Origin: Candidatus Sysuiplasmataceae archaeon
GTDB taxonomy: Archaea > Thermoplasmatota > Thermoplasmata > Sysuiplasmatales > Sysuiplasmataceae
Length of the DNA: 64,000 nt
Direction of reading: 5' to 3'
Assembly (NCBI GenBank): GCA_046706185.1
Contig: JBJKPR010000002.1
Coordinates: 31,433 to 95,432, forward strand
The position numbers and the translations under genes are program-made. Position 1 is the first letter of the stretch. Each line of letters begins with the position of its first letter. The notes below the pieces were generated by a model. The model was not told where the DNA came from and did not search any database. It saw only the letters and a program-made list of their open reading frames with translations. Positions 11,346 through 24,257 of the stretch are shown here, piece after piece.

Positions 11346-11549
11346 AATCAGCTCGCTGGCCGCTTCCTCGAGGGAGATGGACTTCTCCCTTGCCCTTTCC
11401 CTTATGGCACTCATTGCCTCGACATAGTCCGAAAAAGCAAGGTGCTTGCGCCGGACCGCCTTGCCGAAAGTCCTTTCGAATGTTTCATCATATCTCCTGT
11501 TCTTCAGTGCCATTTGAACGGCATCTGCTACTTCCTTCTTGATTTCCAC
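11337..11549 (-). CDS. hypothetical 70-aa helical protein
   Basis: ORF overlaps the 3' end of the GMP synthase subunit A gene by 22 nt, with charged helical composition. No family recognised. Confidence 0.25.
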   Translation of the reverse strand: MEIKKEVADAVQMALKNRRYDETFERTFGKAVRRKHLAFSDYVEAMSAIRERAREKSISLEEAASELISE

Positions 11550-12157
11550 TCGGCCACCTTCCGCAGGAAATTCCGGAAGATTTCAACACCGTGTTCTGTC
11601 TCATCGACTTCTGGATGAAACTGGAGGCTGAATATCGGTCTTGTTTCCGACATCATCGCCTCCACGGGGCAGTCTTCTGTGCCAGCAAGCACCTTGAAAC
11701 CAGGCGGGGCTTTCTTCACCTCGTCCCTGTGTGATTCCCATACCCTGAACCTGCCTGGCAGACCAGCAAGTACGCCCTCGCCGTGAAAGACCGTCAGGTT
11801 CGCCTTCCCGAATTCGGAGCTGCTGCCCCGGCCAGTAAGTCCGCCAAAGTGATGTGCTATGAAGTGATGGCCAACGCAAATACCAAGCACAGGCTTGTCC
11901 ATACTGTCAAGGTACTGCGAGGAGAGCCCCATCTTTTCTGGTTCCAGTCCCACACTTGGAGAGCCGCCGCTGAGCACCAGGCCGTCCGCATCTGCTATAT
12001 CTGCAACTGGAACGGTGTTCGGAACGATGCTGACGTGCGCACCAAGATCCCTTATTACGCGGTACTCCCTGTGAGTCCACTGCCCCCCATTGTCAATCAC
12101 ATAAATCTGAAGGCCCGAAAAATCATCTTCGACCATGTATGCCTTCGCATCCGCCAC
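11528..12157 (-). CDS. guaA: GMP synthase [glutamine-hydrolysing] subunit A (class I glutamine amidotransferase)
   Basis: GICVGHH catalytic Cys and HPE triad motif. 209 aa, the stand-alone GATase typical of the archaeal two-subunit enzyme. Confidence 0.85.
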   Translation of the reverse strand: MADAKAYMVEDDFSGLQIYVIDNGGQWTHREYRVIRDLGAHVSIVPNTVPVADIADADGLVLSGGSPSVGLEPEKMGLSSQYLDSMDKPVLGICVGHHFIAHHFGGLTGRGSSSEFGKANLTVFHGEGVLAGLPGRFRVWESHRDEVKKAPPGFKVLAGTEDCPVEAMMSETRPIFSLQFHPEVDETEHGVEIFRNFLRKVAEWKSRRK

Positions 12158-12626: not shown

Positions 12627-12753
12627 GCCGGATGAAGAACTGATTTCATTCACAGGCAACACCCTCTCCCGTACTAGTGACTTCAGACATTATTTTATTG
12701 CCCGTCCACCATTGAAGAACCCTGAAGGACGAAAGGGATGTGACGGTGCTGTA

Positions 12754-13992
12754 ATGAACAAGGAACTGGCTGAAAAAGGAAAGAGAAGGATTGAATGGGC
12801 CAAGGCGCACATGAAGGTACTCGCCATCGCGGCCGAAGAACTCAGGAAAAAAGGAGACCTGAAGGGGCTGAAGATAGGGATGGCGTTGCATGTCGAGGCG
12901 AAGACTGCCTGCCTTGCGCTGGCCCTCAGGGATGCAGGAGCTGAAGTCAGGCTGGCGAGTTGCAACCCCCTGTCAACGGATGATTCTGTGAGCGAAGCAC
13001 TCAATTCTCTCTACGGCCTCCCCACCTTTGCAAGGAGAGGGGAGACGGGCGAGGAATACTACAGGAACCTTGGAAGTGTGCTCGAGATCAGACCGGACAT
13101 AGTGATAGATGACGGAGCAGACCTCATAACTCTTCTGCACCTCGAGAGAAAGGACCTGATTTCAGGAGTGATAGGAGGGAATGAGGAGACAACGACAGGT
13201 GTTGTGAGGCTCAGGGCGATGGAGGCGGACGGCAAGCTTGAGTTTCCTGTAATCGCGGTCAACGATGCATACATGAAATACCTGTTCGACAACAGATACG
13301 GAACAGGGCAGTCAACGCTTGACGGAATCATGTCTGCCACCAACCTTCTTCTTGCGGGCAAAAAGATTGTTGTTGCCGGATACGGCTGGTGCGGCAGGGG
13401 GATAGCCAACAAGGCACGTGGAATGGGCGGCGTTGTGACGGTGACAGAAGTCGACCCGGTCAAAGCCATAGAGGCTGTGATGGACGGCTTCACTGTCGGA
13501 AGGATGGATGATGTGATAGCGGATGCCGATTTTGTGATAACGGCCACCGGTGACAGGGACATAGTGACATATGAAAAAGCTCTGAAGGCCAAGGACGGAT
13601 GTGTGATGGCCAATTCAGGTCATTTCAATCTTGAGATAGATGTCGAGACAATAAGAGCAAAGTCCAAAGTCACCAACGCCAGGGAATATGTAGAGGAGTT
13701 CAGGCTCGACAACGGGAAGAAAATCTACATACTCGCTGACGGAAGGCTCGTGAACCTGGCAGCAGGTCAGGGGCACCCTGCAGAGATAATGGATATGAGC
13801 TTCACGATGCAGGCACTTGCAGCCGATTTCCTTGCCACAGAGGGAAAGAAGCTGAAACCAGGCGTCCACATTCTGCCGAGGAAGCTGGATACGGACATTG
13901 CGATGATGAAGCTAAGGACACTTGGCGTGAGAATAGATGAACTCACTGAAACGCAGAAGAAGTATCTTGCATCGTGGAATGAAGGCACATGA
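12754..13992 (+). CDS. ahcY: S-adenosyl-L-homocysteine hydrolase (adenosylhomocysteinase)
   Basis: LHVEAKTA, SCNPLSTDD and GYGWCGRG (NAD-binding) motifs. Archaeal-length enzyme (412 aa from the ATG at 12754). Confidence 0.9.
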   Translation: MNKELAEKGKRRIEWAKAHMKVLAIAAEELRKKGDLKGLKIGMALHVEAKTACLALALRDAGAEVRLASCNPLSTDDSVSEALNSLYGLPTFARRGETGEEYYRNLGSVLEIRPDIVIDDGADLITLLHLERKDLISGVIGGNEETTTGVVRLRAMEADGKLEFPVIAVNDAYMKYLFDNRYGTGQSTLDGIMSATNLLLAGKKIVVAGYGWCGRGIANKARGMGGVVTVTEVDPVKAIEAVMDGFTVGRMDDVIADADFVITATGDRDIVTYEKALKAKDGCVMANSGHFNLEIDVETIRAKSKVTNAREYVEEFRLDNGKKIYILADGRLVNLAAGQGHPAEIMDMSFTMQALAADFLATEGKKLKPGVHILPRKLDTDIAMMKLRTLGVRIDELTETQKKYLASWNEGT

Positions 13993-14927
13993 CAGAAGGC
14001 TGGAAACGGCTGACAGCAAGGCACAGGACCAGCAACTTCCTTACTGTGCTCGGCCACATAAATGTGGATGTAGTGTACGAGCTCAGCAGGTTCCCAGTCA
14101 AGGGGCAGTCCATAAACACCGGAACCGTCAGTGAGCACTTCGGTGGAACTGCGGGAAACATAGCGCTCCATGCATCTGCACTCGGGTTGAAAACGGCAAT
14201 TGGATGCTATGTCGGAGAAGATTTCAGTCCCGAGTTCAGGAAACTGCTATTAAGCTCCGGTGTTGACTGCTATGACGTTATAGTTGTGGAAAGGGAAAGA
14301 ACGCCCAGGTGCCATGTTTTCAATACGCCCGAAGGGGAGCAGACATACATCATTGAACAGGGAGCAATGGCAAGCAACAAGGAGCTGCCTCTCTGGGAAA
14401 AATCTGTAGACAGCTGCATAGTCGCGCATGTTGCTACCGGTGATCCTGACAGGTATCTCAGGGCCGTCCGGGGAAGGCGGTATTCCTTCGACCCGGGACA
14501 GGAGATAAACTACAGGTACACGCCAAGAAAGTTCAGAATGCTCCTCGAAGATGCTGAAACATTCTTCACCAATGCGGTTGAAATGAGGATGGCGCTTAAG
14601 CTCACGGGTGCAAAGAATGAAAAGGAAATTGTGAAGCACTGCGGCATGGTAATAAAGACGGAGGGAGAAAAGGGAACAGTTGTAATACAACGGGATGGCA
14701 GAACAACGGTCCCGCCATGCAAGGTGAGGAAGTATGTTGACACCATCGGTGCGGGAGATGCGTTCAGGGCCGGTTACTACGCTTCCCTGGAGAAGGGGCA
14801 TGGCTTGATTGAGTGTGTTGAATTCGGAAACGCTATGGCATCGATCGCAATAGAGGGCGCGGGCGGCACGGGTGCCAGAGCAACCTACAGGCAACTTGAA
14901 GAAAGGTGGAAGGAAAACTACCGCTGA
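13989..14927 (+). CDS. PfkB-family ribokinase-like kinase, likely adenosine/nucleoside kinase
   Basis: DTIGAGDAFRAG PfkB signature. Overlaps the ahcY stop (ATGA). The functional guess rests on the adenosine-producing neighbour. Confidence 0.65.
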   Translation: MTEGWKRLTARHRTSNFLTVLGHINVDVVYELSRFPVKGQSINTGTVSEHFGGTAGNIALHASALGLKTAIGCYVGEDFSPEFRKLLLSSGVDCYDVIVVERERTPRCHVFNTPEGEQTYIIEQGAMASNKELPLWEKSVDSCIVAHVATGDPDRYLRAVRGRRYSFDPGQEINYRYTPRKFRMLLEDAETFFTNAVEMRMALKLTGAKNEKEIVKHCGMVIKTEGEKGTVVIQRDGRTTVPPCKVRKYVDTIGAGDAFRAGYYASLEKGHGLIECVEFGNAMASIAIEGAGGTGARATYRQLEERWKENYR

Positions 14928-15031: not shown

Positions 15032-16609
15032 TCAGAGAGAAAACTCCCGCCGGACGATGCAGCGGCCACCTGTTGTGTCGCTCACAGTTGCGGTGGCAAC
15101 GCACCTGCCCTTGAGTCCTGTCTTCAGCAATGCTGTTCCAGAGTGCATTTCAGCAAAGTCCGCCGCTGCCTTTTTTCTGGTTAGGCCGGGGAATTCCAGC
15201 TCTATGCGGGCAAGCATGAGAATGCCGCTGCCTGAAGAGTAAGCCCGCAGTGTCACTGTGGAGCAGCAGTTTGAAGAGGAGGCGTCCAGTGAGGCGACGG
15301 GCGGAAGAAGGAGCCTGAGGCACTTACCGGAGTGCCCGAAATCGTCAAATGGGGAGGACACGATTTCGGCAGGTATGTGATATGTGCATCCGTTGAACTT
15401 CAGGGTGTAGGCGGCTTTGCACGTGCCCTTACTCTGTCCAACGCCCGTGGGTACATCCGCTTTGTAAATACCTTCAAGTAAACTGCGACCGTCATTGCAG
15501 CTCTCCATCCCTGGCGATTCCGCGAGACCGAGCGCGGCGGAAGGGGTCGTGCGTGGTGCATTGCGCTCAGGCGAACCAATGCGACTGCCGGCTATGCATG
15601 CGGTGAGCAGCCTCGGTTCCACAAAATCCCTCGGGCACCTTTCCTTCTTCAAACGTTTCAAAGTTGTGTTTATTGCGACCTCATTGCTGTCCGCGGCAAC
15701 CCATTTCCTTCCGAGAGACGATGCAACCACCGCGGTTGTTCCGCTGCCGCAGAAGAAATCAGCAACAGTATCACCGTCTGAGGAGGAGGCTTTTATTATT
15801 GTCTCAAGCAGCCTGACAGGTTTCTGGGTTGGATATCCAACTCTCTCCTTCGCCTGGCTGTTGATGATCGGTATATCCCAGACATCTTCCCTGACCTTTC
15901 CAAGAGAATGCAGCTTCGTCCGTCTGCCAAACGACACTATCCCCCTTTCGCCCTGGCTGATTGTCCCTCTGCTGTATTCCATCCTCACGGCATCAACGTT
16001 GAACTTGTGTTTTCCTGTACTCTTTGCGTACAGGAGTATTGTGTCGTGCTTTTTCTTGAACCTGTCCCTTACTGTGCCGCCAGGGTCCCTGTAATGCCAA
16101 ATGACTTCATTCAGGAAGTTGCCGTAGCCGAATATGCTGTCAGCCAGTACCTTGACGTAGTGTGATGCATGCCAGTCAATATGAATGTAAATGCTGCCGC
16201 TGTCTTTCAGAAGCCGCCTCATCTCCATGAGCCTCGGCCTCAGCCAGGCAATGTAACCGTCCAGTCCGTCATACCATACATCGCTGAAAACAGGTTTTCC
16301 ATCCTCCCTGTAAAGATGATTGAATTCCCTGTTTGTGAAGAAGGGCGGATCTGCGTAGATTAGCTGAATGCAGCTGCCGGGAAGGGCCCGCATTGCGGCC
16401 AGGTTTTCGCCCCATATGAGCATGTTCGCGTCTCCAACCCCGCCACCAAACCTCTGTCCGTTTTCAAGCAGTGGTACGGAAGCAAAGGGCGAAACGTCCA
16501 GAGTATCCAGCGCGTTTCTTTCAGGAGCAGGGGCGGTTTTACGTGGCTTCACACTATAGCTTCCGCCCGACTGTTTCATCTGCAGCACCTTCTTTTCAAT
16601 GCACGGCAC
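15032..16609 (-). CDS. beta-class N6-adenine/N4-cytosine DNA methyltransferase with an uncharacterised ~180-aa C-terminal domain
   Basis: Motif IV DPPF (IYADPPFF) lies N-terminal to motif I FxGxG (FFCGSGTT). This is the permuted order of beta-class amino-MTases. No adjacent restriction endonuclease was found. Confidence 0.8.
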   Translation of the reverse strand: MPCIEKKVLQMKQSGGSYSVKPRKTAPAPERNALDTLDVSPFASVPLLENGQRFGGGVGDANMLIWGENLAAMRALPGSCIQLIYADPPFFTNREFNHLYREDGKPVFSDVWYDGLDGYIAWLRPRLMEMRRLLKDSGSIYIHIDWHASHYVKVLADSIFGYGNFLNEVIWHYRDPGGTVRDRFKKKHDTILLYAKSTGKHKFNVDAVRMEYSRGTISQGERGIVSFGRRTKLHSLGKVREDVWDIPIINSQAKERVGYPTQKPVRLLETIIKASSSDGDTVADFFCGSGTTAVVASSLGRKWVAADSNEVAINTTLKRLKKERCPRDFVEPRLLTACIAGSRIGSPERNAPRTTPSAALGLAESPGMESCNDGRSLLEGIYKADVPTGVGQSKGTCKAAYTLKFNGCTYHIPAEIVSSPFDDFGHSGKCLRLLLPPVASLDASSSNCCSTVTLRAYSSGSGILMLARIELEFPGLTRKKAAADFAEMHSGTALLKTGLKGRCVATATVSDTTGGRCIVRREFSL

Positions 16610-16759
16610 CCCGTAATCAATTCACTCCTCGCTACACACAACTGGCTCCGCTTATTTTCGTCTTTTGCGGGTTGGACCCCATCTCATATGTTGCGTGAAT
16701 TGAATAACAACGATATAATTAAGAACAGTACAACAGTTACACATCACGAGGCGAAGTTG

Positions 16760-16993
16760 ATGGCTGTCGGGTTCGTCCTTATAAGCACAGCGCCAGCGAA
16801 AGAACATGAAGTCTACAACGAATTGCTCAAAGTCAAGGAAATCGTTGAACTTCACCCTCTCTTCGGCGAATATGACCTAATAGCGAAGATTGAGGCAGAG
16901 GACTTCAACCTGCTCGGCCAGGTGGTTGTTGACAAGGTAAGGGCAGTCCCAGGTGTCATTGATACCAAGACGTTGACCGGGATAAAGTTTTAA
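16760..16993 (+). CDS. stand-alone Lrp/AsnC-type RAM (ligand-binding) domain protein
   Basis: About 77 aa with the beta-alpha-beta-beta-alpha-beta pattern (EVYNELLKVKEIVELHPLFGEYDLIAKIEA). No HTH present. Confidence 0.5.
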   Translation: MAVGFVLISTAPAKEHEVYNELLKVKEIVELHPLFGEYDLIAKIEAEDFNLLGQVVVDKVRAVPGVIDTKTLTGIKF

Positions 16994-17025: not shown

Positions 17026-17370
17026 ATGATGCTAGAAGGGATTTTTTTTCTTGCGCAGACAAATGCGATTCCGACTGAGAACGCGGGCAATTTCATAACA
17101 ATACTGCTGCTTACGTTCAGCATCTTCATGATACTTGCAGGCGCGTTTACTTCTTACTTCGGGACAGGCAAGAGCAGGGCGGTGGGTGCAGTGCTGCTTG
17201 TCGTCGGCATCATAGTGGCAGTTGCGTGGCTGTTTGTGGCCAACTATTACAGTTACACTACGCCGGGGCTGGCCGATGTCATATGGGGAGCCTTCCTCAG
17301 TATAGTCGCAGCCATAATAGGCGCAGTGATAGCGGTGCTCGTCTTCCTTCTTGCCATAATGAAGACATGA
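17026..17370 (+). CDS. small integral membrane protein
   Basis: Three predicted TM helices. Follows 32 bp after the RAM-domain gene. Confidence 0.4.
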   Translation: MMLEGIFFLAQTNAIPTENAGNFITILLLTFSIFMILAGAFTSYFGTGKSRAVGAVLLVVGIIVAVAWLFVANYYSYTTPGLADVIWGAFLSIVAAIIGAVIAVLVFLLAIMKT

Positions 17371-17439: not shown

Positions 17440-18387
17440 ATGGACGCCCAGAAGTTCGTTGAAGGACAGAAAGGTGACATAGCCTCGAAGGTGAGGGGAA
17501 GGGCGATAGTTGCTCTTTCCGGAGGTGTTGACAGCACTGTAGCAGCCGTCATAGTCAATGAGGCGATAGGTGAAAGACTCCTGGCAGTCTATGTCGATAC
17601 GGGCTTCATGCGGAAGGGGGAAACCGAGAGCCTCTCCTCCATGTTTGAGAAACTGGGGCTGAACTTCAGGATCGTCCATGCGTCAGACCTTTTTTTTGCC
17701 GCGCTGGAAGGCATTGAGGACGCTGAAAGAAAGAGGGAGATCATAGGGAGGAAATTCATCGAGGTATTTGAAAAGGAAGCCCAGGACTTCGGGGCTGAAT
17801 ATCTCGTTCAGGGGACAATTGCTCCCGACTGGATTGAAAGTGGCGGATCGCTCAGGGACAGGATAAAGTCGCACCATAACGTTGCAGGTCTTCCACCTGA
17901 AATGAAGCTTGAGCTCGTTGAGCCATTGAGGGATCTTTACAAGGATGAAGTCAGAGCCGTGGCGAGATACCTCGGAGTCGCAGTGGCTGAGAGACAGCCA
18001 TTTCCCGGACCAGGGCTGGCTGTCAGGGTCCTCGGCAAGCTGACAAGAGAAGACGTGGAGATAGAGCGTGAAGCTTGCGCGATCGTCGAGGAAGAGATAG
18101 AGAGGTACCATGCGGAAGGTAAAATCGGAGCGCTTCCCTGGCAGTACTTTGCTGTCCTGGCACCGGTCAGGAGCGTGGGAGTCCAGGGGGACGTGAGGGC
18201 GTTCGGACGGACTATCGTGGTAAGGGCGGTAATGTCAAAGGATGCGATGACTGCAAGGTTCTCCGACCTCCCGCATGAGCTGCTGGAAAACATATCCACC
18301 AGGATCACCAACAGACTAGGCTCTTCAGTAACAAGGGTAGTCTACGACGTGACAAACAAGCCTCCTGCAACGATCGAATGGGAATAA
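17440..18387 (+). CDS. guaA: GMP synthase subunit B (ATP pyrophosphatase)
   Basis: PP-loop SGGVDSTV and C-terminal GMP-synthase dimerisation domain. Confidence 0.9.
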   Translation: MDAQKFVEGQKGDIASKVRGRAIVALSGGVDSTVAAVIVNEAIGERLLAVYVDTGFMRKGETESLSSMFEKLGLNFRIVHASDLFFAALEGIEDAERKREIIGRKFIEVFEKEAQDFGAEYLVQGTIAPDWIESGGSLRDRIKSHHNVAGLPPEMKLELVEPLRDLYKDEVRAVARYLGVAVAERQPFPGPGLAVRVLGKLTREDVEIEREACAIVEEEIERYHAEGKIGALPWQYFAVLAPVRSVGVQGDVRAFGRTIVVRAVMSKDAMTARFSDLPHELLENISTRITNRLGSSVTRVVYDVTNKPPATIEWE

Positions 18388-19511: not shown

Positions 19512-22500
19512 ATGAGTACCGACCGCAGAAGGACGCCTGGTTCCAGTGAAATTGATATCGCTGCGGGCATGGATCGGATAAGGGCAGCGGAGAATACATC
19601 CGCAATTGAGTCCGTGCTGAACGGGTTGAGGGAGACGTTCTCGTGCAGGTCGGCGACCATACACGTCGCTGCCGGTGCGGGTCTCATTAGCCTGCTGTCT
19701 GTTCCCGATGCATCTTCCTCCGGGGAGACCATCCCCTTTGAATCGGAACATCCGGTTGCTGCCTGCGCCAGAGTAAGGGATATTGTGTTCGTGCAGGGCT
19801 CACCTGAAAGCGGACCGTGGAGCGATATGTTCGCGCTGCCGCTTGTCAGTTCCGAAGCAACGATCGGTGTCCTGTCTCTCGAACGGCCATTGAGGGGCAG
19901 AGAGCAACTGGCCAGCCTTTCAAGAATCATTGCAATGGCCCTTACTCCGCTTCTGCGCGACGAAGGCGCACGAGCTGCCAGGAGGTTCAACACGCCCGAC
20001 GTGATCATGAAAACGGTCAGAAACAGTTCGCCGTACGAGTCCACCACGGAGAGGTTGAGAACGCTTACAACGACGCTCATGAACTCGTTTGCGCTCACTT
20101 CTGTAAGGCTGTATTCCGAAAGTGACGGCAGCCCTGAACTTCTCCTGTCTGCAGGCGATGACATTGCGGTTGAGGCGTATGTTGACATTGAGGGGCCTCT
20201 GAAAAAAGGGATCCATGCGGCAAGTTTGAGGCATGATCCTGACAGAAGATGCACCATGTCCAGGAACATTGTTCCGATTGATTCTCCTGACGAAGGAAGA
20301 ATTGTAGTTGTCTATGAGATGGACGCCGCGAGGCGAGATACGGATGGTGTCAGGGAGAATGTGTCTTGTGCCTATCTTGCCCTTCTTGCACTCGCAGGAA
20401 CGGAGAACACAGTATCGCTCAACTGGGTAAGAGCAATAGAAACGATGGAGAAGGTTGCGGACGATGTGTCAAGGAGTGGTGATGATTACCAGGGACTCGT
20501 TCTCGAAAGGTTTCTGGACAGGCTCAGTGAGATGGGTTTCATAGCCGGCTATGATATCCTGCCCGGAAGTGAAATCGCGGGAACCTCCACCCGTGGAGAC
20601 AGTGACGGCAATGGCCATCAGATCAACAGTGAACTTGCCATGCTGATGTCCGAGAGCAGTGAAACAAAGCAGCCATTGTTCGACAAGCATGCGAGCACAG
20701 TAGTCTTTCCGGTCAAGGATGATGCGAATGATACATGGGAAATTGCGCTCAGACTGACCGGAAGGCAGCTCCTGAGATCTGAAAGAAGGTTGTGGGAACG
20801 CCTTGGTTCTGCCTTCGGGCTTCTGGTGAGGGGGTTCATGCTTGAAGCGAAGAGCAGGAGACAGGCAGAAGAGACGAGAAAACTGAGGTCTTCTCTGTCT
20901 GCATTCCAGGGAGCGTCTGCTTCCATGGAGACTGCCGATACAGCTGGAAAAGTGGTAACGAGGCTCGCCGAAAGCCTGTCGACAATCACACTGGGGGAGG
21001 CGTTTGGCCTTGTGAAAGACGGGGATGCGTTCACACCTGTCTTGCCGGCAGACGACACTATCAGAATTGAAAGCGCGGTTGTAGAATCGATGCTCTCTTC
21101 ATCCATTGAGGTTGCAGGACATGTATACGACGTCCATCCTGATGCACTGCGCGGGAGGCTCCCGGAACTTGTAGGCAGTGAGGTATACCATGGTCTTTAT
21201 GCAGTCACCATAAGCTCGAGAGAGGGTGAGGCAAGGGGCCTTGTCCTCTGTCCTGGACAGAAAAGCAGGTTTCTGCCAGTCACGCGGGAGGGTGAGCTTT
21301 CGGGCCTCGCTTCGCTCGCTGACGTCAGGATGAGCTGCATTTCACTTGCCGAAGAGGCTTCACTCGAAAGAAAGAAGCTCAGGAAGTTCGAAGAGCTGAT
21401 ATCGAAGATATCTCTGTCGGAGGCCGACAGCCACATAATGGCCTCAATTGTGGAGGCTGCATCAGTAATCACGAATTCAGAGATGTCTGCGCTTGCGATA
21501 CTGGATGTCGAAAAAGGGAGACTTGTCTCTGCAAATTCAAACGGCTTCGACTTGACGGATGAGGTAAGGAAGAGATGGTCGAGCGGCGGAGTGACTGGAA
21601 GGATCCTGAGAACTCTTGAAGCTGAAATAATCAACGACTACGCCTTCGATCCTGACAGGGATAGCTATTCGATTGACAGTCTCAAAGTCAGGCAGCTTGC
21701 AGGAGTGCCGATAAGAATAGATGTCAAGCACAAGGGCTTCCTTGTTGTCATGAATACTGCAGACGGTATGTACAGCGTGGCGCACCTCCGGACGCTGGAG
21801 TTGCTCTCAAACATAGCGTCTTCGGCCATAAGAGCAGCAAATGCAAGGGATGAGAGGAGAAGGCTGGTGTCGGACTTTGACAAGCTGCAGTCAGCAGAGC
21901 TGAAGCTTTACTCATCCAGGAGTTTCAGCGAATTGATAGAACTCCTTGCGAATGAGGCGAGAGACATATTCCACGCCTCCGCCGTGCTCATCGCAACGGA
22001 TGTAAACAATGTTAAGAGGATCCTGTTCTCCACAACACAGGATGTGGCGGAAGGTGATGTGGTTTACAACAGCGGACCCATTGGCCTGCAGTTTGACGAG
22101 CAGCCACACACTGCAAGGATAGTCGAGAGGGCAACGCTCGAGGAAGAATGGGCAAAGGTGCTCGAGACAAACGAGCTTCTGCTCGTGAGGTCCGGACTCC
22201 CGCACAATTCGATTGTCGTGGCAACGGTAAACGCGGAAGGAAAGGCAAAGTATGCCACAGAGGACATAGACAATTTCAGCAAACTCTCCAAGATAGCATC
22301 AACAGCACTGGAGAAGACGGTTCTGCTCAGTGGTATAAACCAGAAACTCAAACACATCGAGATCATGCACACGATAGTTGATGCGCTAGTTTACGGAAAG
22401 AAGGAGTATGAGATTTACGATAGTGTTCTTCCCACACTCGTTGAGATGTGCAGGGCAGACTTGGGTCTTCTCTGGAAGTATGACAGGGAAGGGGAGAAAC

Positions 22501-22880
22501 TGAAAGTCTCGGCTGAATGGTACAGAAGCAGGGAAACGGAGCACCTGGTCGGCTACGAGGTCGGCGCGAACAAAGGAATTGTAGGAAGCGTTGTGATGAA
22601 CAAGATGCCTGTGCTCATTGCGAACGCAGCAATAGACAACAAGGCGGTTCACATAAGCGGAACCAACGTCGAGAAATTTGAAAGTGTCCTTGGAATGCCG
22701 TTAATAGTCAGCGGGAAACTGCTTGGTGTCCTGACGGTCTACAGGGACCAGCCGCCTCCGTTCACATCATCTGAACTTGACATGCTTTCAGGCGTTTCGA
22801 ATGACATTTCTCTTGTCATGGCGAGGCACAGCCTCGAGGCAGATGGAAAGAAGCACGCCGGCTTGCCCGGCACAGACTGA
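19512..22880 (+). CDS. large multi-GAF-domain protein (1122 aa) with no recognisable output domain
   Basis: Several GAF-like modules. The C-terminal module is a canonical GAF (LGLLWKYDREGEKL...GIVGSVVMNKMPVLI...LGMPLIVSGKLLGVLTVY). No His-kinase, HTH, GGDEF or EAL motifs were seen. Confidence 0.7.
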   Translation: MSTDRRRTPGSSEIDIAAGMDRIRAAENTSAIESVLNGLRETFSCRSATIHVAAGAGLISLLSVPDASSSGETIPFESEHPVAACARVRDIVFVQGSPESGPWSDMFALPLVSSEATIGVLSLERPLRGREQLASLSRIIAMALTPLLRDEGARAARRFNTPDVIMKTVRNSSPYESTTERLRTLTTTLMNSFALTSVRLYSESDGSPELLLSAGDDIAVEAYVDIEGPLKKGIHAASLRHDPDRRCTMSRNIVPIDSPDEGRIVVVYEMDAARRDTDGVRENVSCAYLALLALAGTENTVSLNWVRAIETMEKVADDVSRSGDDYQGLVLERFLDRLSEMGFIAGYDILPGSEIAGTSTRGDSDGNGHQINSELAMLMSESSETKQPLFDKHASTVVFPVKDDANDTWEIALRLTGRQLLRSERRLWERLGSAFGLLVRGFMLEAKSRRQAEETRKLRSSLSAFQGASASMETADTAGKVVTRLAESLSTITLGEAFGLVKDGDAFTPVLPADDTIRIESAVVESMLSSSIEVAGHVYDVHPDALRGRLPELVGSEVYHGLYAVTISSREGEARGLVLCPGQKSRFLPVTREGELSGLASLADVRMSCISLAEEASLERKKLRKFEELISKISLSEADSHIMASIVEAASVITNSEMSALAILDVEKGRLVSANSNGFDLTDEVRKRWSSGGVTGRILRTLEAEIINDYAFDPDRDSYSIDSLKVRQLAGVPIRIDVKHKGFLVVMNTADGMYSVAHLRTLELLSNIASSAIRAANARDERRRLVSDFDKLQSAELKLYSSRSFSELIELLANEARDIFHASAVLIATDVNNVKRILFSTTQDVAEGDVVYNSGPIGLQFDEQPHTARIVERATLEEEWAKVLETNELLLVRSGLPHNSIVVATVNAEGKAKYATEDIDNFSKLSKIASTALEKTVLLSGINQKLKHIEIMHTIVDALVYGKKEYEIYDSVLPTLVEMCRADLGLLWKYDREGEKLKVSAEWYRSRETEHLVGYEVGANKGIVGSVVMNKMPVLIANAAIDNKAVHISGTNVEKFESVLGMPLIVSGKLLGVLTVYRDQPPPFTSSELDMLSGVSNDISLVMARHSLEADGKKHAGLPGTD

Positions 22881-23084: not shown

Positions 23085-24257
23085 ATGTCTAGCGGTGTAT
23101 TCAGGGATATATCAAAGCTTTCGTTCGACTACGTCCCGGAGAAGCTCCTCCACAGGGAGGAGCAGTGGAGAAAGCTTGAAGTGATGTTCGAGCCGGTTGC
23201 CCAGGGCGGGTACAGCCAGAACGTCCTTCTTGTGGGCAGCATTGGCACAGGAAAGACAGTTACTTCAAAGAGGTTCTGCACGGAGCTCTCACTGAACGCA
23301 AGAAAGTCGGGCAGAAGTATCGAATGGACCATAGTGAATTGCAGGCAGAGAAACAGCGAGGCGTCGACGCTCCTGAAGATGATTAACTACTTCGACCCGA
23401 ATTTCCCCGACAGGGGATTTTCAGCGCAGGAGCTAAGGAAGGTTCTCAGGAAACATATAGAAAAAAGGGGAGGTCACTGCATATTCGTCCTGGACGAGGT
23501 TGACGCGCTCTTCAGGAGCGGAGCAAGTGATCTGATATACTTCCTCAGCAGACTTCCAGAGGAATCTGATTCACTGAAGAACAGAGTGTCGCTGATTCTG
23601 ATATCGCAGAGGCACGTGTTCGAAATGCTCGACATGTCTGCCCTTTCCACATTCAAACGAACGAACGTGGTCGAGTTTGGCAAGTACACCAAGGAGCAGC
23701 TTTTCGACATAATATCAGCTAGGGCGGACCTGGCGCTTGTCAGCGGCAGTTATGATGATGAGATACTCGATATGATCGCAGACATTGCCAGCGAGTGGGG
23801 CGATGCAAGGTTTGCAATAGAGATGCTTGAAAAGTCAGGCATGATTGCAAACGAGAGAAGCAGCGACAGGATAAGCACGGAAGAAGTGAGGGCTGCGAAA
23901 GCGGCAACCTACGCGTTCGTGACTGAAGAACGGGTGACGGGGCTGAACAGGGACCAGTTGCTTATACTGCTCGCGACAGCCAGGATGTTGAGGAACAAGG
24001 CGTACACCGAGACGTCTGAAGTGGAGAAGAGCTACAGGATTGCGTGCGAAGAGCACAACACGAAGCCGAGGGCACACACGCAGTTCTATTCCCATGTAAA
24101 GGAGCTCGCCGGGCTGGGCCTGCTCGACATAAGGTCCAAGAAGGGAAGCGTTGCCGGAATGACGAACATGATCACGATGCTTGACGTCCCGGCTGATGTC
24201 ATGGTGCAGCAGATAGAACGCCTTCTGGGAGCCGGAAAGAAGCAGAAAATGCGCTGA
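23085..24257 (+). CDS. orc1: Orc1/Cdc6 replication initiation protein
   Basis: AAA+ Walker A GSIGTGKT, Walker B FVLDEVD, C-terminal winged helix. Confidence 0.9.
   Translation: MSSGVFRDISKLSFDYVPEKLLHREEQWRKLEVMFEPVAQGGYSQNVLLVGSIGTGKTVTSKRFCTELSLNARKSGRSIEWTIVNCRQRNSEASTLLKMINYFDPNFPDRGFSAQELRKVLRKHIEKRGGHCIFVLDEVDALFRSGASDLIYFLSRLPEESDSLKNRVSLILISQRHVFEMLDMSALSTFKRTNVVEFGKYTKEQLFDIISARADLALVSGSYDDEILDMIADIASEWGDARFAIEMLEKSGMIANERSSDRISTEEVRAAKAATYAFVTEERVTGLNRDQLLILLATARMLRNKAYTETSEVEKSYRIACEEHNTKPRAHTQFYSHVKELAGLGLLDIRSKKGSVAGMTNMITMLDVPADVMVQQIERLLGAGKKQKMR

Follow-up and report, generated by a model that had tools for sequence, protein, structure and literature searches.

The 64-kb window, by which we mean the whole stretch of DNA analysed, carries a complete methyltransferase gene on its reverse strand. 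It was noted that a PfkB-family kinase gene lies on one side of it and a RAM-domain gene on the other, as the sequence-only reading of this DNA had described. The features of the methylase and of the adjoining genes, the latter being neighbours and not part of the methylase, are as follows.

12712-13992, + strand: AhcY, overlapping the PfkB gene by 4 bp; methylase neighbour
13989-14927, + strand: PfkB-family nucleoside-kinase-like gene, convergent with the methylase; neighbour only
15032..16609, - strand: complete methyltransferase open reading frame, 525 aa counted from GTG
15035..15415, - strand: C-terminal predicted Ig-like (FN3/PKD-type) beta-sandwich, residues 399-525
15416..15634, - strand: linker, residues 326-398 (about 70 aa), G/P/S-rich and mostly of low model confidence
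15635..16426, - strand: beta-class N6_N4 catalytic core, residues 62-325
15737..15757, - strand: motif I, FFCGSGT (AdoMet binding), residues 285-291
15824..16024, - strand: internal target-recognition region (TRD), residues 196-262, in the beta-class position between motifs VIII and X
16340..16351, - strand: motif IV, DPPF (catalytic), residues 87-90
16427..16609, - strand: N-terminal leader, residues 1-61
16688-16993, + strand: RAM-only gene (AsnC/Lrp ligand domain), transcribed divergently with respect to the methylase; neighbour only

The identical NCBI protein P0001 (515 aa) is called from an ATG 10 codons after the GTG of the open reading frame, at residue 11 (window position 16579). The RAM gene probably starts at its residue 25, which gives the 77 aa annotated in relatives. 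Since alignments to orthologues that are 49-58% identical take in 86-96% of the methylase and reach across the whole protein, a truncated or chimeric gene, raised as a possibility in the sequence-only reading, is excluded.

Catalytic core, target-recognition region and C-terminal tail

The assignment of the protein to the beta class of amino-DNA methyltransferases was upheld. The Pfam model PF01555 (N6_N4_Mtase) matched residues 81-315 with an E-value of 2.6e-53 (181.7 bits, the curated cut-off being 26.7), and the motifs follow the beta-class permutation, with motif IV at residues 87-90, the TRD-position segment at 196-262 and motif I at 285-291. D87, P88 and P89 were invariant among 60 sequences, and the core matches the fold of solved beta-class enzymes. 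By sequence and fold together, the closest solved relatives are M.BceJIV (listed value 28.6), M.RsrI (28.0), M.MboIIA (27.4) and CcrM (23.7), along with the Type III Mods EcoP15I (25.6), 6K0W (24.9) and Mbo45V (23.0). The D-P-P-[FY] form of motif IV is typical of N6-adenine enzymes, and the best NCBIfam matches were adenine-specific models, every one of them below its curated cut-off. Because both the DPPF motif and these best matches favour it, the modified base would most likely be N6-adenine. In the leader, residues 1-34 are predicted to be disordered and lack conservation, and residues ~41-61 are packed onto the core in an AlphaFold2 model with a pLDDT of ~90.

Beyond the core lie about 200 extra C-terminal residues (326-525), which carry moderately more Cys (4.5%, as against 1.1% in the core), Ser (10.5% and 7.2%) and Gly (10.0% and 8.0%), in keeping with the composition first reported for them. 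It had also been proposed that they form a novel domain without a recognisable fold, a claim that the structural models do not bear out. No Pfam or NCBIfam model, the Pfam PKD families included, matched residues 326-525 even at E <= 1. In the full-length AlphaFold2 model, built on a 60-sequence alignment (mean pLDDT 82.6, pTM 0.85), residues 399-525 appeared as a confident ten-strand all-beta domain, which was reproduced when residues 326-525 were modelled separately, and both fold searches with the tail returned Ig-like sandwiches exclusively. A nuclease or a known TRD, the folds that the sequence-only reading took, together with a cognate partner nearby, as signs of an ordinary restriction-modification (R-M) component, is ruled out for the tail by these searches.

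As modelled, the tail is a short degenerate linker followed by an ordinary Ig-like domain, and not a new fold. The linker residues 370-395 have a pLDDT below 50 and are predicted to be disordered; the linker stands where the sister subclade, like the bacterial Type III-like Mods, still has a middle alpha/beta subdomain. The sandwich ends in a conserved strand motif, V-x-D-x-x-G-G, which includes D511 and G514. When the tail profile was searched as an HMM against 1.84 billion representative proteins, the full-length module was recovered in 8 clusters, all of them methylases of this clade. Matches outside these methylases cover the sandwich part of the profile only, and the 8 that were scanned against Pfam proved to be Ig-like, Big_ or PKD repeat proteins. 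For annotation, the lesson is that a missing Pfam match on the tail of a methyltransferase may conceal a plain Ig-like domain.

We then compared the conservation of the different parts of the protein. Across the Thermoplasmata clade the TRD segment is 63-81% identical, equal to the catalytic segments and with many invariant residues, in contrast to 10-23% for the linker and 12-43% for the beta-sandwich, which makes the tail the fastest-evolving part of the protein. The dN/dS values, based on three non-saturated pairs among three closely related sequences with few substitutions, were 0.04-0.10 in the core, as compared with 0.21-0.37 in the beta domain and 0.24-0.70 in the linker. The C-terminal extension is under weaker yet purifying selection, and not in neutral decay. 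Target recognition had been suggested as a possible function of the C-terminal domain; because a canonical internal TRD is present and is as conserved as the catalytic motifs, the tail is probably not the specificity determinant.

A broader form of that suggestion is that the C-terminal region serves as a lineage-specific module, either by determining or tuning the choice of target or by adding a new activity. The confinement of the full-length tail profile to this clade would fit such a role, as would the persistence of purifying selection in a region diverging far faster than the core, and the full-length pTM of 0.85 suggests a defined packing of the tail against the core. Against this, the domain is a generic Ig-like sandwich that shows neither catalytic features nor any known for the reading of DNA, the enzyme has an intact and conserved canonical TRD, the linker is predicted to be disordered, and the near-invariant tail residues are limited to P436, D511 and G514, the last two of which fall within the final-strand motif. 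We regard a role of this kind as unlikely.

Synteny, inheritance and the AhcY-PfkB neighbours

Full-length homologues at 49-58% identity were found in the proteins P0002-P0010, and a second tier of Thermoplasmata proteins of ~500 aa (P0008, P0011-P0018) aligned by BLAST over the catalytic half only. Syntenic loci were taken from the contigs of these homologues and from a GTDB species scan anchored on the PfkB gene. The methylase occupies the same slot of a ~17-kb syntenic block in L001-L011 and L014, which are all the relatives recovered with the methylase, and the genomes with this block include that of Candidatus Sysuiplasma superficiale. The block runs from GCV_T through Cdc6/Orc1, a 1,100-aa GAF protein, HAD, GuaA-C, a 114-aa membrane protein and RAM to the methylase, and continues with PfkB, AhcY, GuaA-GATase, DUF131, Mut7-C, RibD_C and a Na/H exchanger. 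Its Cdc6/Orc1 gene lies ~6.5 kb from the methylase.

Identities to the window proteins were 64-78% for the methylase core, compared with 68-85% for AhcY and 52-74% for PfkB. Because the slot is fixed and the core diverges like its housekeeping neighbours, the methylase appears, from these sequence comparisons, to be vertically inherited in Candidatus Sysuiplasma-like Thermoplasmata, as a conserved chromosomal gene and not as a mobile R-M fragment. These are a small group of acid-loving archaea known from MAGs and metagenomes only. An insertion by a mobile element was also considered and is unsupported, flanking inverted repeats not being notable and GC being uniform across the window.

The sequence-only reading had further grouped the methylase with AhcY and PfkB in a block themed on the SAM cycle, and this part of it did not survive. 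AhcY and PfkB probably form an operon, and the pair is flanked by both GMP-synthase subunits; the arrangement suggests a genuine two-gene unit with a purine or SAH salvage theme that is independent of the methylase. A functional coupling to the methylase would mean that local removal of SAH aids methylation and that regulation is shared. The methylase does adjoin the PfkB-AhcY pair in the window and in L001-L011, the two genes of the pair overlap by 4 bp, and a nucleoside derived from SAH could plausibly be recycled by them. However, as the whole 17-kb region is syntenic, adjacency to AhcY-PfkB carries no specific functional signal, and since the methylase is convergent with PfkB it is not co-transcribed with the pair. 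In L013, a more distant relative whose PfkB is 47% identical, the order AhcY-PfkB-RAM-TM114-GuaA is retained with the methylase absent and a PfkB-RAM gap of only ~160 bp. A gene for a 580-aa TPP-dependent enzyme separates PfkB from the methylase in L014, and the methylase is inverted in place in L004, L005 and L011. AhcY, moreover, serves all the SAM-dependent methyltransferases of the cell. A SAM-cycle operon is ruled out by the convergence, the locus without the methylase, the insertion and the inversions, and functional coupling in any looser sense is highly improbable; the adjacency to AhcY is here an artefact of synteny. The promoter and terminator scan was of the bacterial type and is not informative for an archaeal host.

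Solitary status and probable Type III-like ancestry

The search for a restriction partner covered the 64-kb window and +/-8-10 kb of the MAG contigs. Within ~8-10 kb of the methylase, neither the window nor the syntenic loci contain a restriction endonuclease, specificity or Res-type gene, in agreement with the earlier observation that none is adjacent. Searches by tblastn with five Res/nuclease proteins against the 64-kb window and L001-L014 returned noise only, and a Pfam survey of the syntenic loci revealed housekeeping neighbours only. Persistent orphan methyltransferases have been documented in archaea, and a fixed slot, divergence at the rate of housekeeping genes and presence throughout a lineage are their signature, unlike that of mobile R-M systems (PMC10609329). 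With no nearby restriction partner, a constrained core and a fixed slot, the gene is best read, on its sequence and context, as a persistent orphan methyltransferase, and the regulatory or orphan methylase proposed at the outset stands as the best reading.

The methylase might instead be the Mod of a working R-M system whose partner is encoded elsewhere, and so an ordinary component of defence. Its nearest relatives outside the Thermoplasmata are indeed Mod subunits of Type III-like systems, and the purifying selection on the Ig-like tail (dN/dS 0.21-0.37) would be expected if docking to a partner persisted. However, all five of the cousins examined have a same-strand Res gene no more than 5 kb away, and nothing Res-like occurs within 8-10 kb in at least ten syntenic Thermoplasmata loci. 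The fixed slot, the housekeeping-rate divergence and the presence of the gene in all recovered members also carry the persistent-orphan signature (PMC10609329), and a working system of this kind seems improbable to us.

Outside the Thermoplasmata, the closest kin of the methylase are long proteins that resemble Type III Mods. In a neighbor-joining (NJ) tree of the core alone, which is rough, being midpoint-rooted and without bootstrap support, the Thermoplasmata proteins formed one clade, and 32 of the 35 proteins in the sister group were of 561-720 aa with C-terminal extensions of 232-333 aa. The cousins with a Res gene within 5 kb are such long proteins, and the gene in question encodes a ResIII helicase; in three of the five it comes directly after the methylase and is accompanied by a TnsA-like PD-(D/E)xK nuclease, either as a fusion or as a following gene. 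A Mod with a ResIII helicase and a PD-(D/E)xK nuclease is the architecture of Type III R-M. An adjacent co-oriented Res gene of this make-up (SF2 helicase and PD-(D/E)xK nuclease) is absent from the window and from all syntenic loci.

One such cousin, P0024 of Aliarcobacter cryaerophilus, which adjoins a 967-aa Res, matched the PADLOC Type III MTase model PDLC03633 from end to end (E 6e-85). In the window protein the match to this model was confined to the core, residues 62-321 aligning with positions 78-354 of a profile of 616. Mods of the PDLC03633 type share the beta-class core subfamily with the window protein at ~50-60% identity, and both carry a C-terminal PKD/Ig-like sandwich that ends in V-x-D-x-x-G-G. 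The terminal domain of the cousins matches Pfam PKD with E-values down to 2.5e-7, PKD and PKD_4 being found in 5-6 bacterial cousins. The window protein differs from these Mods in having no Res gene, in a tail of 200 aa as against 232-333 aa, and in its middle subdomain, which in the window's own subclade has shrunk to the ~70-aa low-confidence linker.

Whether the two kinds of tail are homologous was assessed by profile-profile alignment. The terminal beta domains aligned in hhalign over 96 columns with a score of 27.7 (E 2.3e-4), and none of 20 column-shuffled controls scored above 11.9; the middle subdomain of the sister subclade aligned with its bacterial counterpart at a probability of 62% (E 7.5e-5, 125 columns). 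Tail alignments in this range of E-values had probabilities of 44-62%. Overall, the hhalign probabilities for homology of the tails ranged from 12 to 62%, which are weak profile-profile scores. Direct sequence-profile searches of the tail against bacterial Mods gave sub-threshold collinear matches only, and the search of the tail HMM against the 1.84 billion representative proteins retrieved no bacterial Mod at E <= 1e-3. Homology to the tail of a Type III-like Mod has moderate support from the profile-profile scores together with position and fold.

We also considered a descent of the methylase from a short Type II-like enzyme, with a separate gain of the Ig-like tail within the Thermoplasmata lineage. 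Short MTase_II models are the best PADLOC matches of the window protein, Ig-like domains are quite easily acquired independently, and both the modest hhalign probabilities and the failure of the library-wide tail search to retrieve bacterial Mods would be in line with such an origin. Nevertheless, long-tailed proteins make up 32 of the 35 sister sequences in the tree of the core, and the two tails are collinear: the middle subdomain comes first, 'PP..V' follows, and the sandwich with its closing V-x-D-x-x-G-G stands last. The actual hhalign score is also well above those of the shuffled controls. An independent origin of the tail is quite unlikely on this evidence, and the enzyme most likely descends from a Type III-like Mod that lost its Res partner.

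Comparison with known orphan methylases and proposed role

Several characterised systems resemble the window methylase in part. CcrM of Caulobacter (PDB 6PBD), a beta-class orphan that makes m6A as predicted for the window protein, likewise extends past its catalytic core in an additional C-terminal domain, and is a conserved, lineage-wide regulator, as the window methylase may be. M.BceJIV of Burkholderia cenocepacia (PDB 8URK/9C3U), which recognises GTWWAC, is without a C-terminal extension, unlike the window protein, and its identity to it (33%) is too low for a transfer of specificity. M.BceJIV is an orphan regulatory m6A enzyme (PMC11380664). Several groups of persistent orphans are described in archaea by Anton et al. 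2023 (PMC10609329), the halobacterial CTAG m4C enzyme among them. With these the window methylase shares its solitary state, the lack of a nuclease partner, conservation within a taxon, vertical inheritance and evolution at a housekeeping rate. It differs from them in its Sysuiplasma-like lineage, in probably making m6A and not m4C, and in its 200-aa Ig-like tail.

The reading that we favour, with a probability of roughly 0.6, is that of a solitary and likely m6A methylase which is vertically inherited, descends from a Type III-like Mod, modifies one motif genome-wide and keeps its Ig-like tail as a scaffold. The ancestor would have been a Type III-like Mod made up of the methylase core, the middle subdomain and the PKD-type domain. 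Its Res helicase-nuclease partner would have been lost, the solitary methylase would then have become fixed in the ancestor of the lineage, and the accessory C-terminal module may have been eroding ever since. The enzyme would methylate a single fixed short motif throughout the genome. By analogy with the archaeal persistent orphans (PMC10609329) and M.BceJIV (PMC11380664), the methyl mark may have a housekeeping or epigenetic role, in replication, repair or transcription, or may serve in protective self-marking. The Ig-like tail would be a leftover scaffold, possibly engaged in dimerisation, protein-protein contact or non-specific contact with DNA, and we infer that it is neither a specificity determinant nor a second enzyme. 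Word counts in the 64 kb gave values of 0.39 for CTAG, 0.68 for GANTC, 0.74 for GGCC and 0.75 for GATC, all of them moderately depleted and none decisive.

A more speculative version, which we consider very unlikely, would make the tail a fast co-evolving adaptor to a lineage-specific partner, and the enzyme a CcrM-like, replication-coupled regulator domesticated from a Type III Mod. A replication or chromatin protein would be the candidate class of partner for such an adaptor, the Cdc6/Orc1 gene of the conserved block being only ~6.5 kb off.

Neither the persistent orphan methyltransferase nor the Mod gene that works without a restriction function is a new concept, and what is new here is a member in an uncultured archaeal order. 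The solitary methylase lengthens the short archaeal list of orphan methyltransferases by one that is vertically inherited at the level of an order, in a lineage known from metagenomes only. The history of domestication is plausible and fairly well documented, and the gene offers a fairly clean example of the possible domestication of a Mod, in which Res disappears, core and TRD remain constant and the C-terminal module erodes stepwise.

The conserved block around the methylase

The conserved block that encloses the beta-class methylase was found to include the following genes of the window:
16688-16993, + strand, stand-alone RAM protein (AsnC/Lrp ligand-binding domain), lacking HTH
17026-17370, + strand, 114-aa predicted membrane protein
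19512-22880, + strand, 1,122-aa multi-GAF-domain protein
23085-24257, + strand, Cdc6/Orc1 gene (Pfam Cdc6_lid, Cdc6_C and AAA)

Conservation in the block was highest for the RAM protein (89-95% identity) and the membrane protein (76-96%), with far lower values among their neighbors. It was noted that the GAF protein has kept its synteny while its sequence evolves fast (29-55% identity), and no output domain was recognizable in the Pfam tables of its orthologues. Because the Cdc6/Orc1 gene lies ~6.5 kb from the methylase, a putative replication origin may be close by.

Bacterial cousins and word statistics

The Res (restriction) genes of the bacterial Type III-like systems, whose methylases are cousins of this one, were located as follows:
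L016, 7798-10168, Res
L019, 2202-4557, Res
L018, 7889-10792, Res

Among these three loci, Res was encountered in two forms, either as a single 967-aa protein or as a ~670-aa ResIII helicase with a separate, overlapping gene for a 115-124-aa TnsA-like nuclease.

Word counts were taken over window positions 1-64000 against a maximal-order Markov expectation. In this exploratory analysis, observed/expected ratios of 0.39 (CTAG), 0.68 (GANTC), 0.74 (GGCC) and 0.75 (GATC) were obtained, and no other NNnNN palindrome was as strongly depleted as GANTC (z -4.8).

The slot between PfkB and RAM

In the window, the methylase lies between RAM and a gene pair:
12712-14927, + strand, AhcY and PfkB-family kinase, 4-bp overlap

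We found that in the WH2.bin25-type lineage the methylase is flipped in place compared to every other relative:
L004, 8001-9554, inverted methylase
L005, 8001-9554, inverted methylase
L011, ~11.4-12.9 kb, inverted methylase

In all three loci it shares the strand of PfkB and RAM, follows PfkB after a gap of ~680 bp, and has no detectable flanking inverted repeats.

In DRTY-7 bin 31, a MAG that carries the label Methanomassiliicoccales (L013, 1-3500), the AhcY-PfkB-RAM-membrane protein-GuaA block was present with the methylase missing from between PfkB (end at 1002) and RAM (start at ~1158). Methylase gain or loss thus took place in this slot. In DBS2-5.bin48 (L014, 455-2197), a gene for a 580-aa TPP-dependent enzyme, resembling pyruvate oxidase or acetolactate synthase in sequence, sits between PfkB and the methylase. 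Insertions seem to be tolerated in this intergenic slot.

A possible salvage neighborhood

AhcY-PfkB is flanked in the window by both subunits of a split GMP synthase:
11528-12157, - strand, GMP-synthase subunit
17440-18387, + strand, GMP-synthase subunit

Among NCBIfam models, the kinase matched best that of the Thermoplasmatales nucleoside kinase, scoring 170 bits where the cut-off is 450. The flanking position of the two subunits suggests a conserved neighborhood for SAH and purine-nucleoside salvage that does not depend on the methylase.
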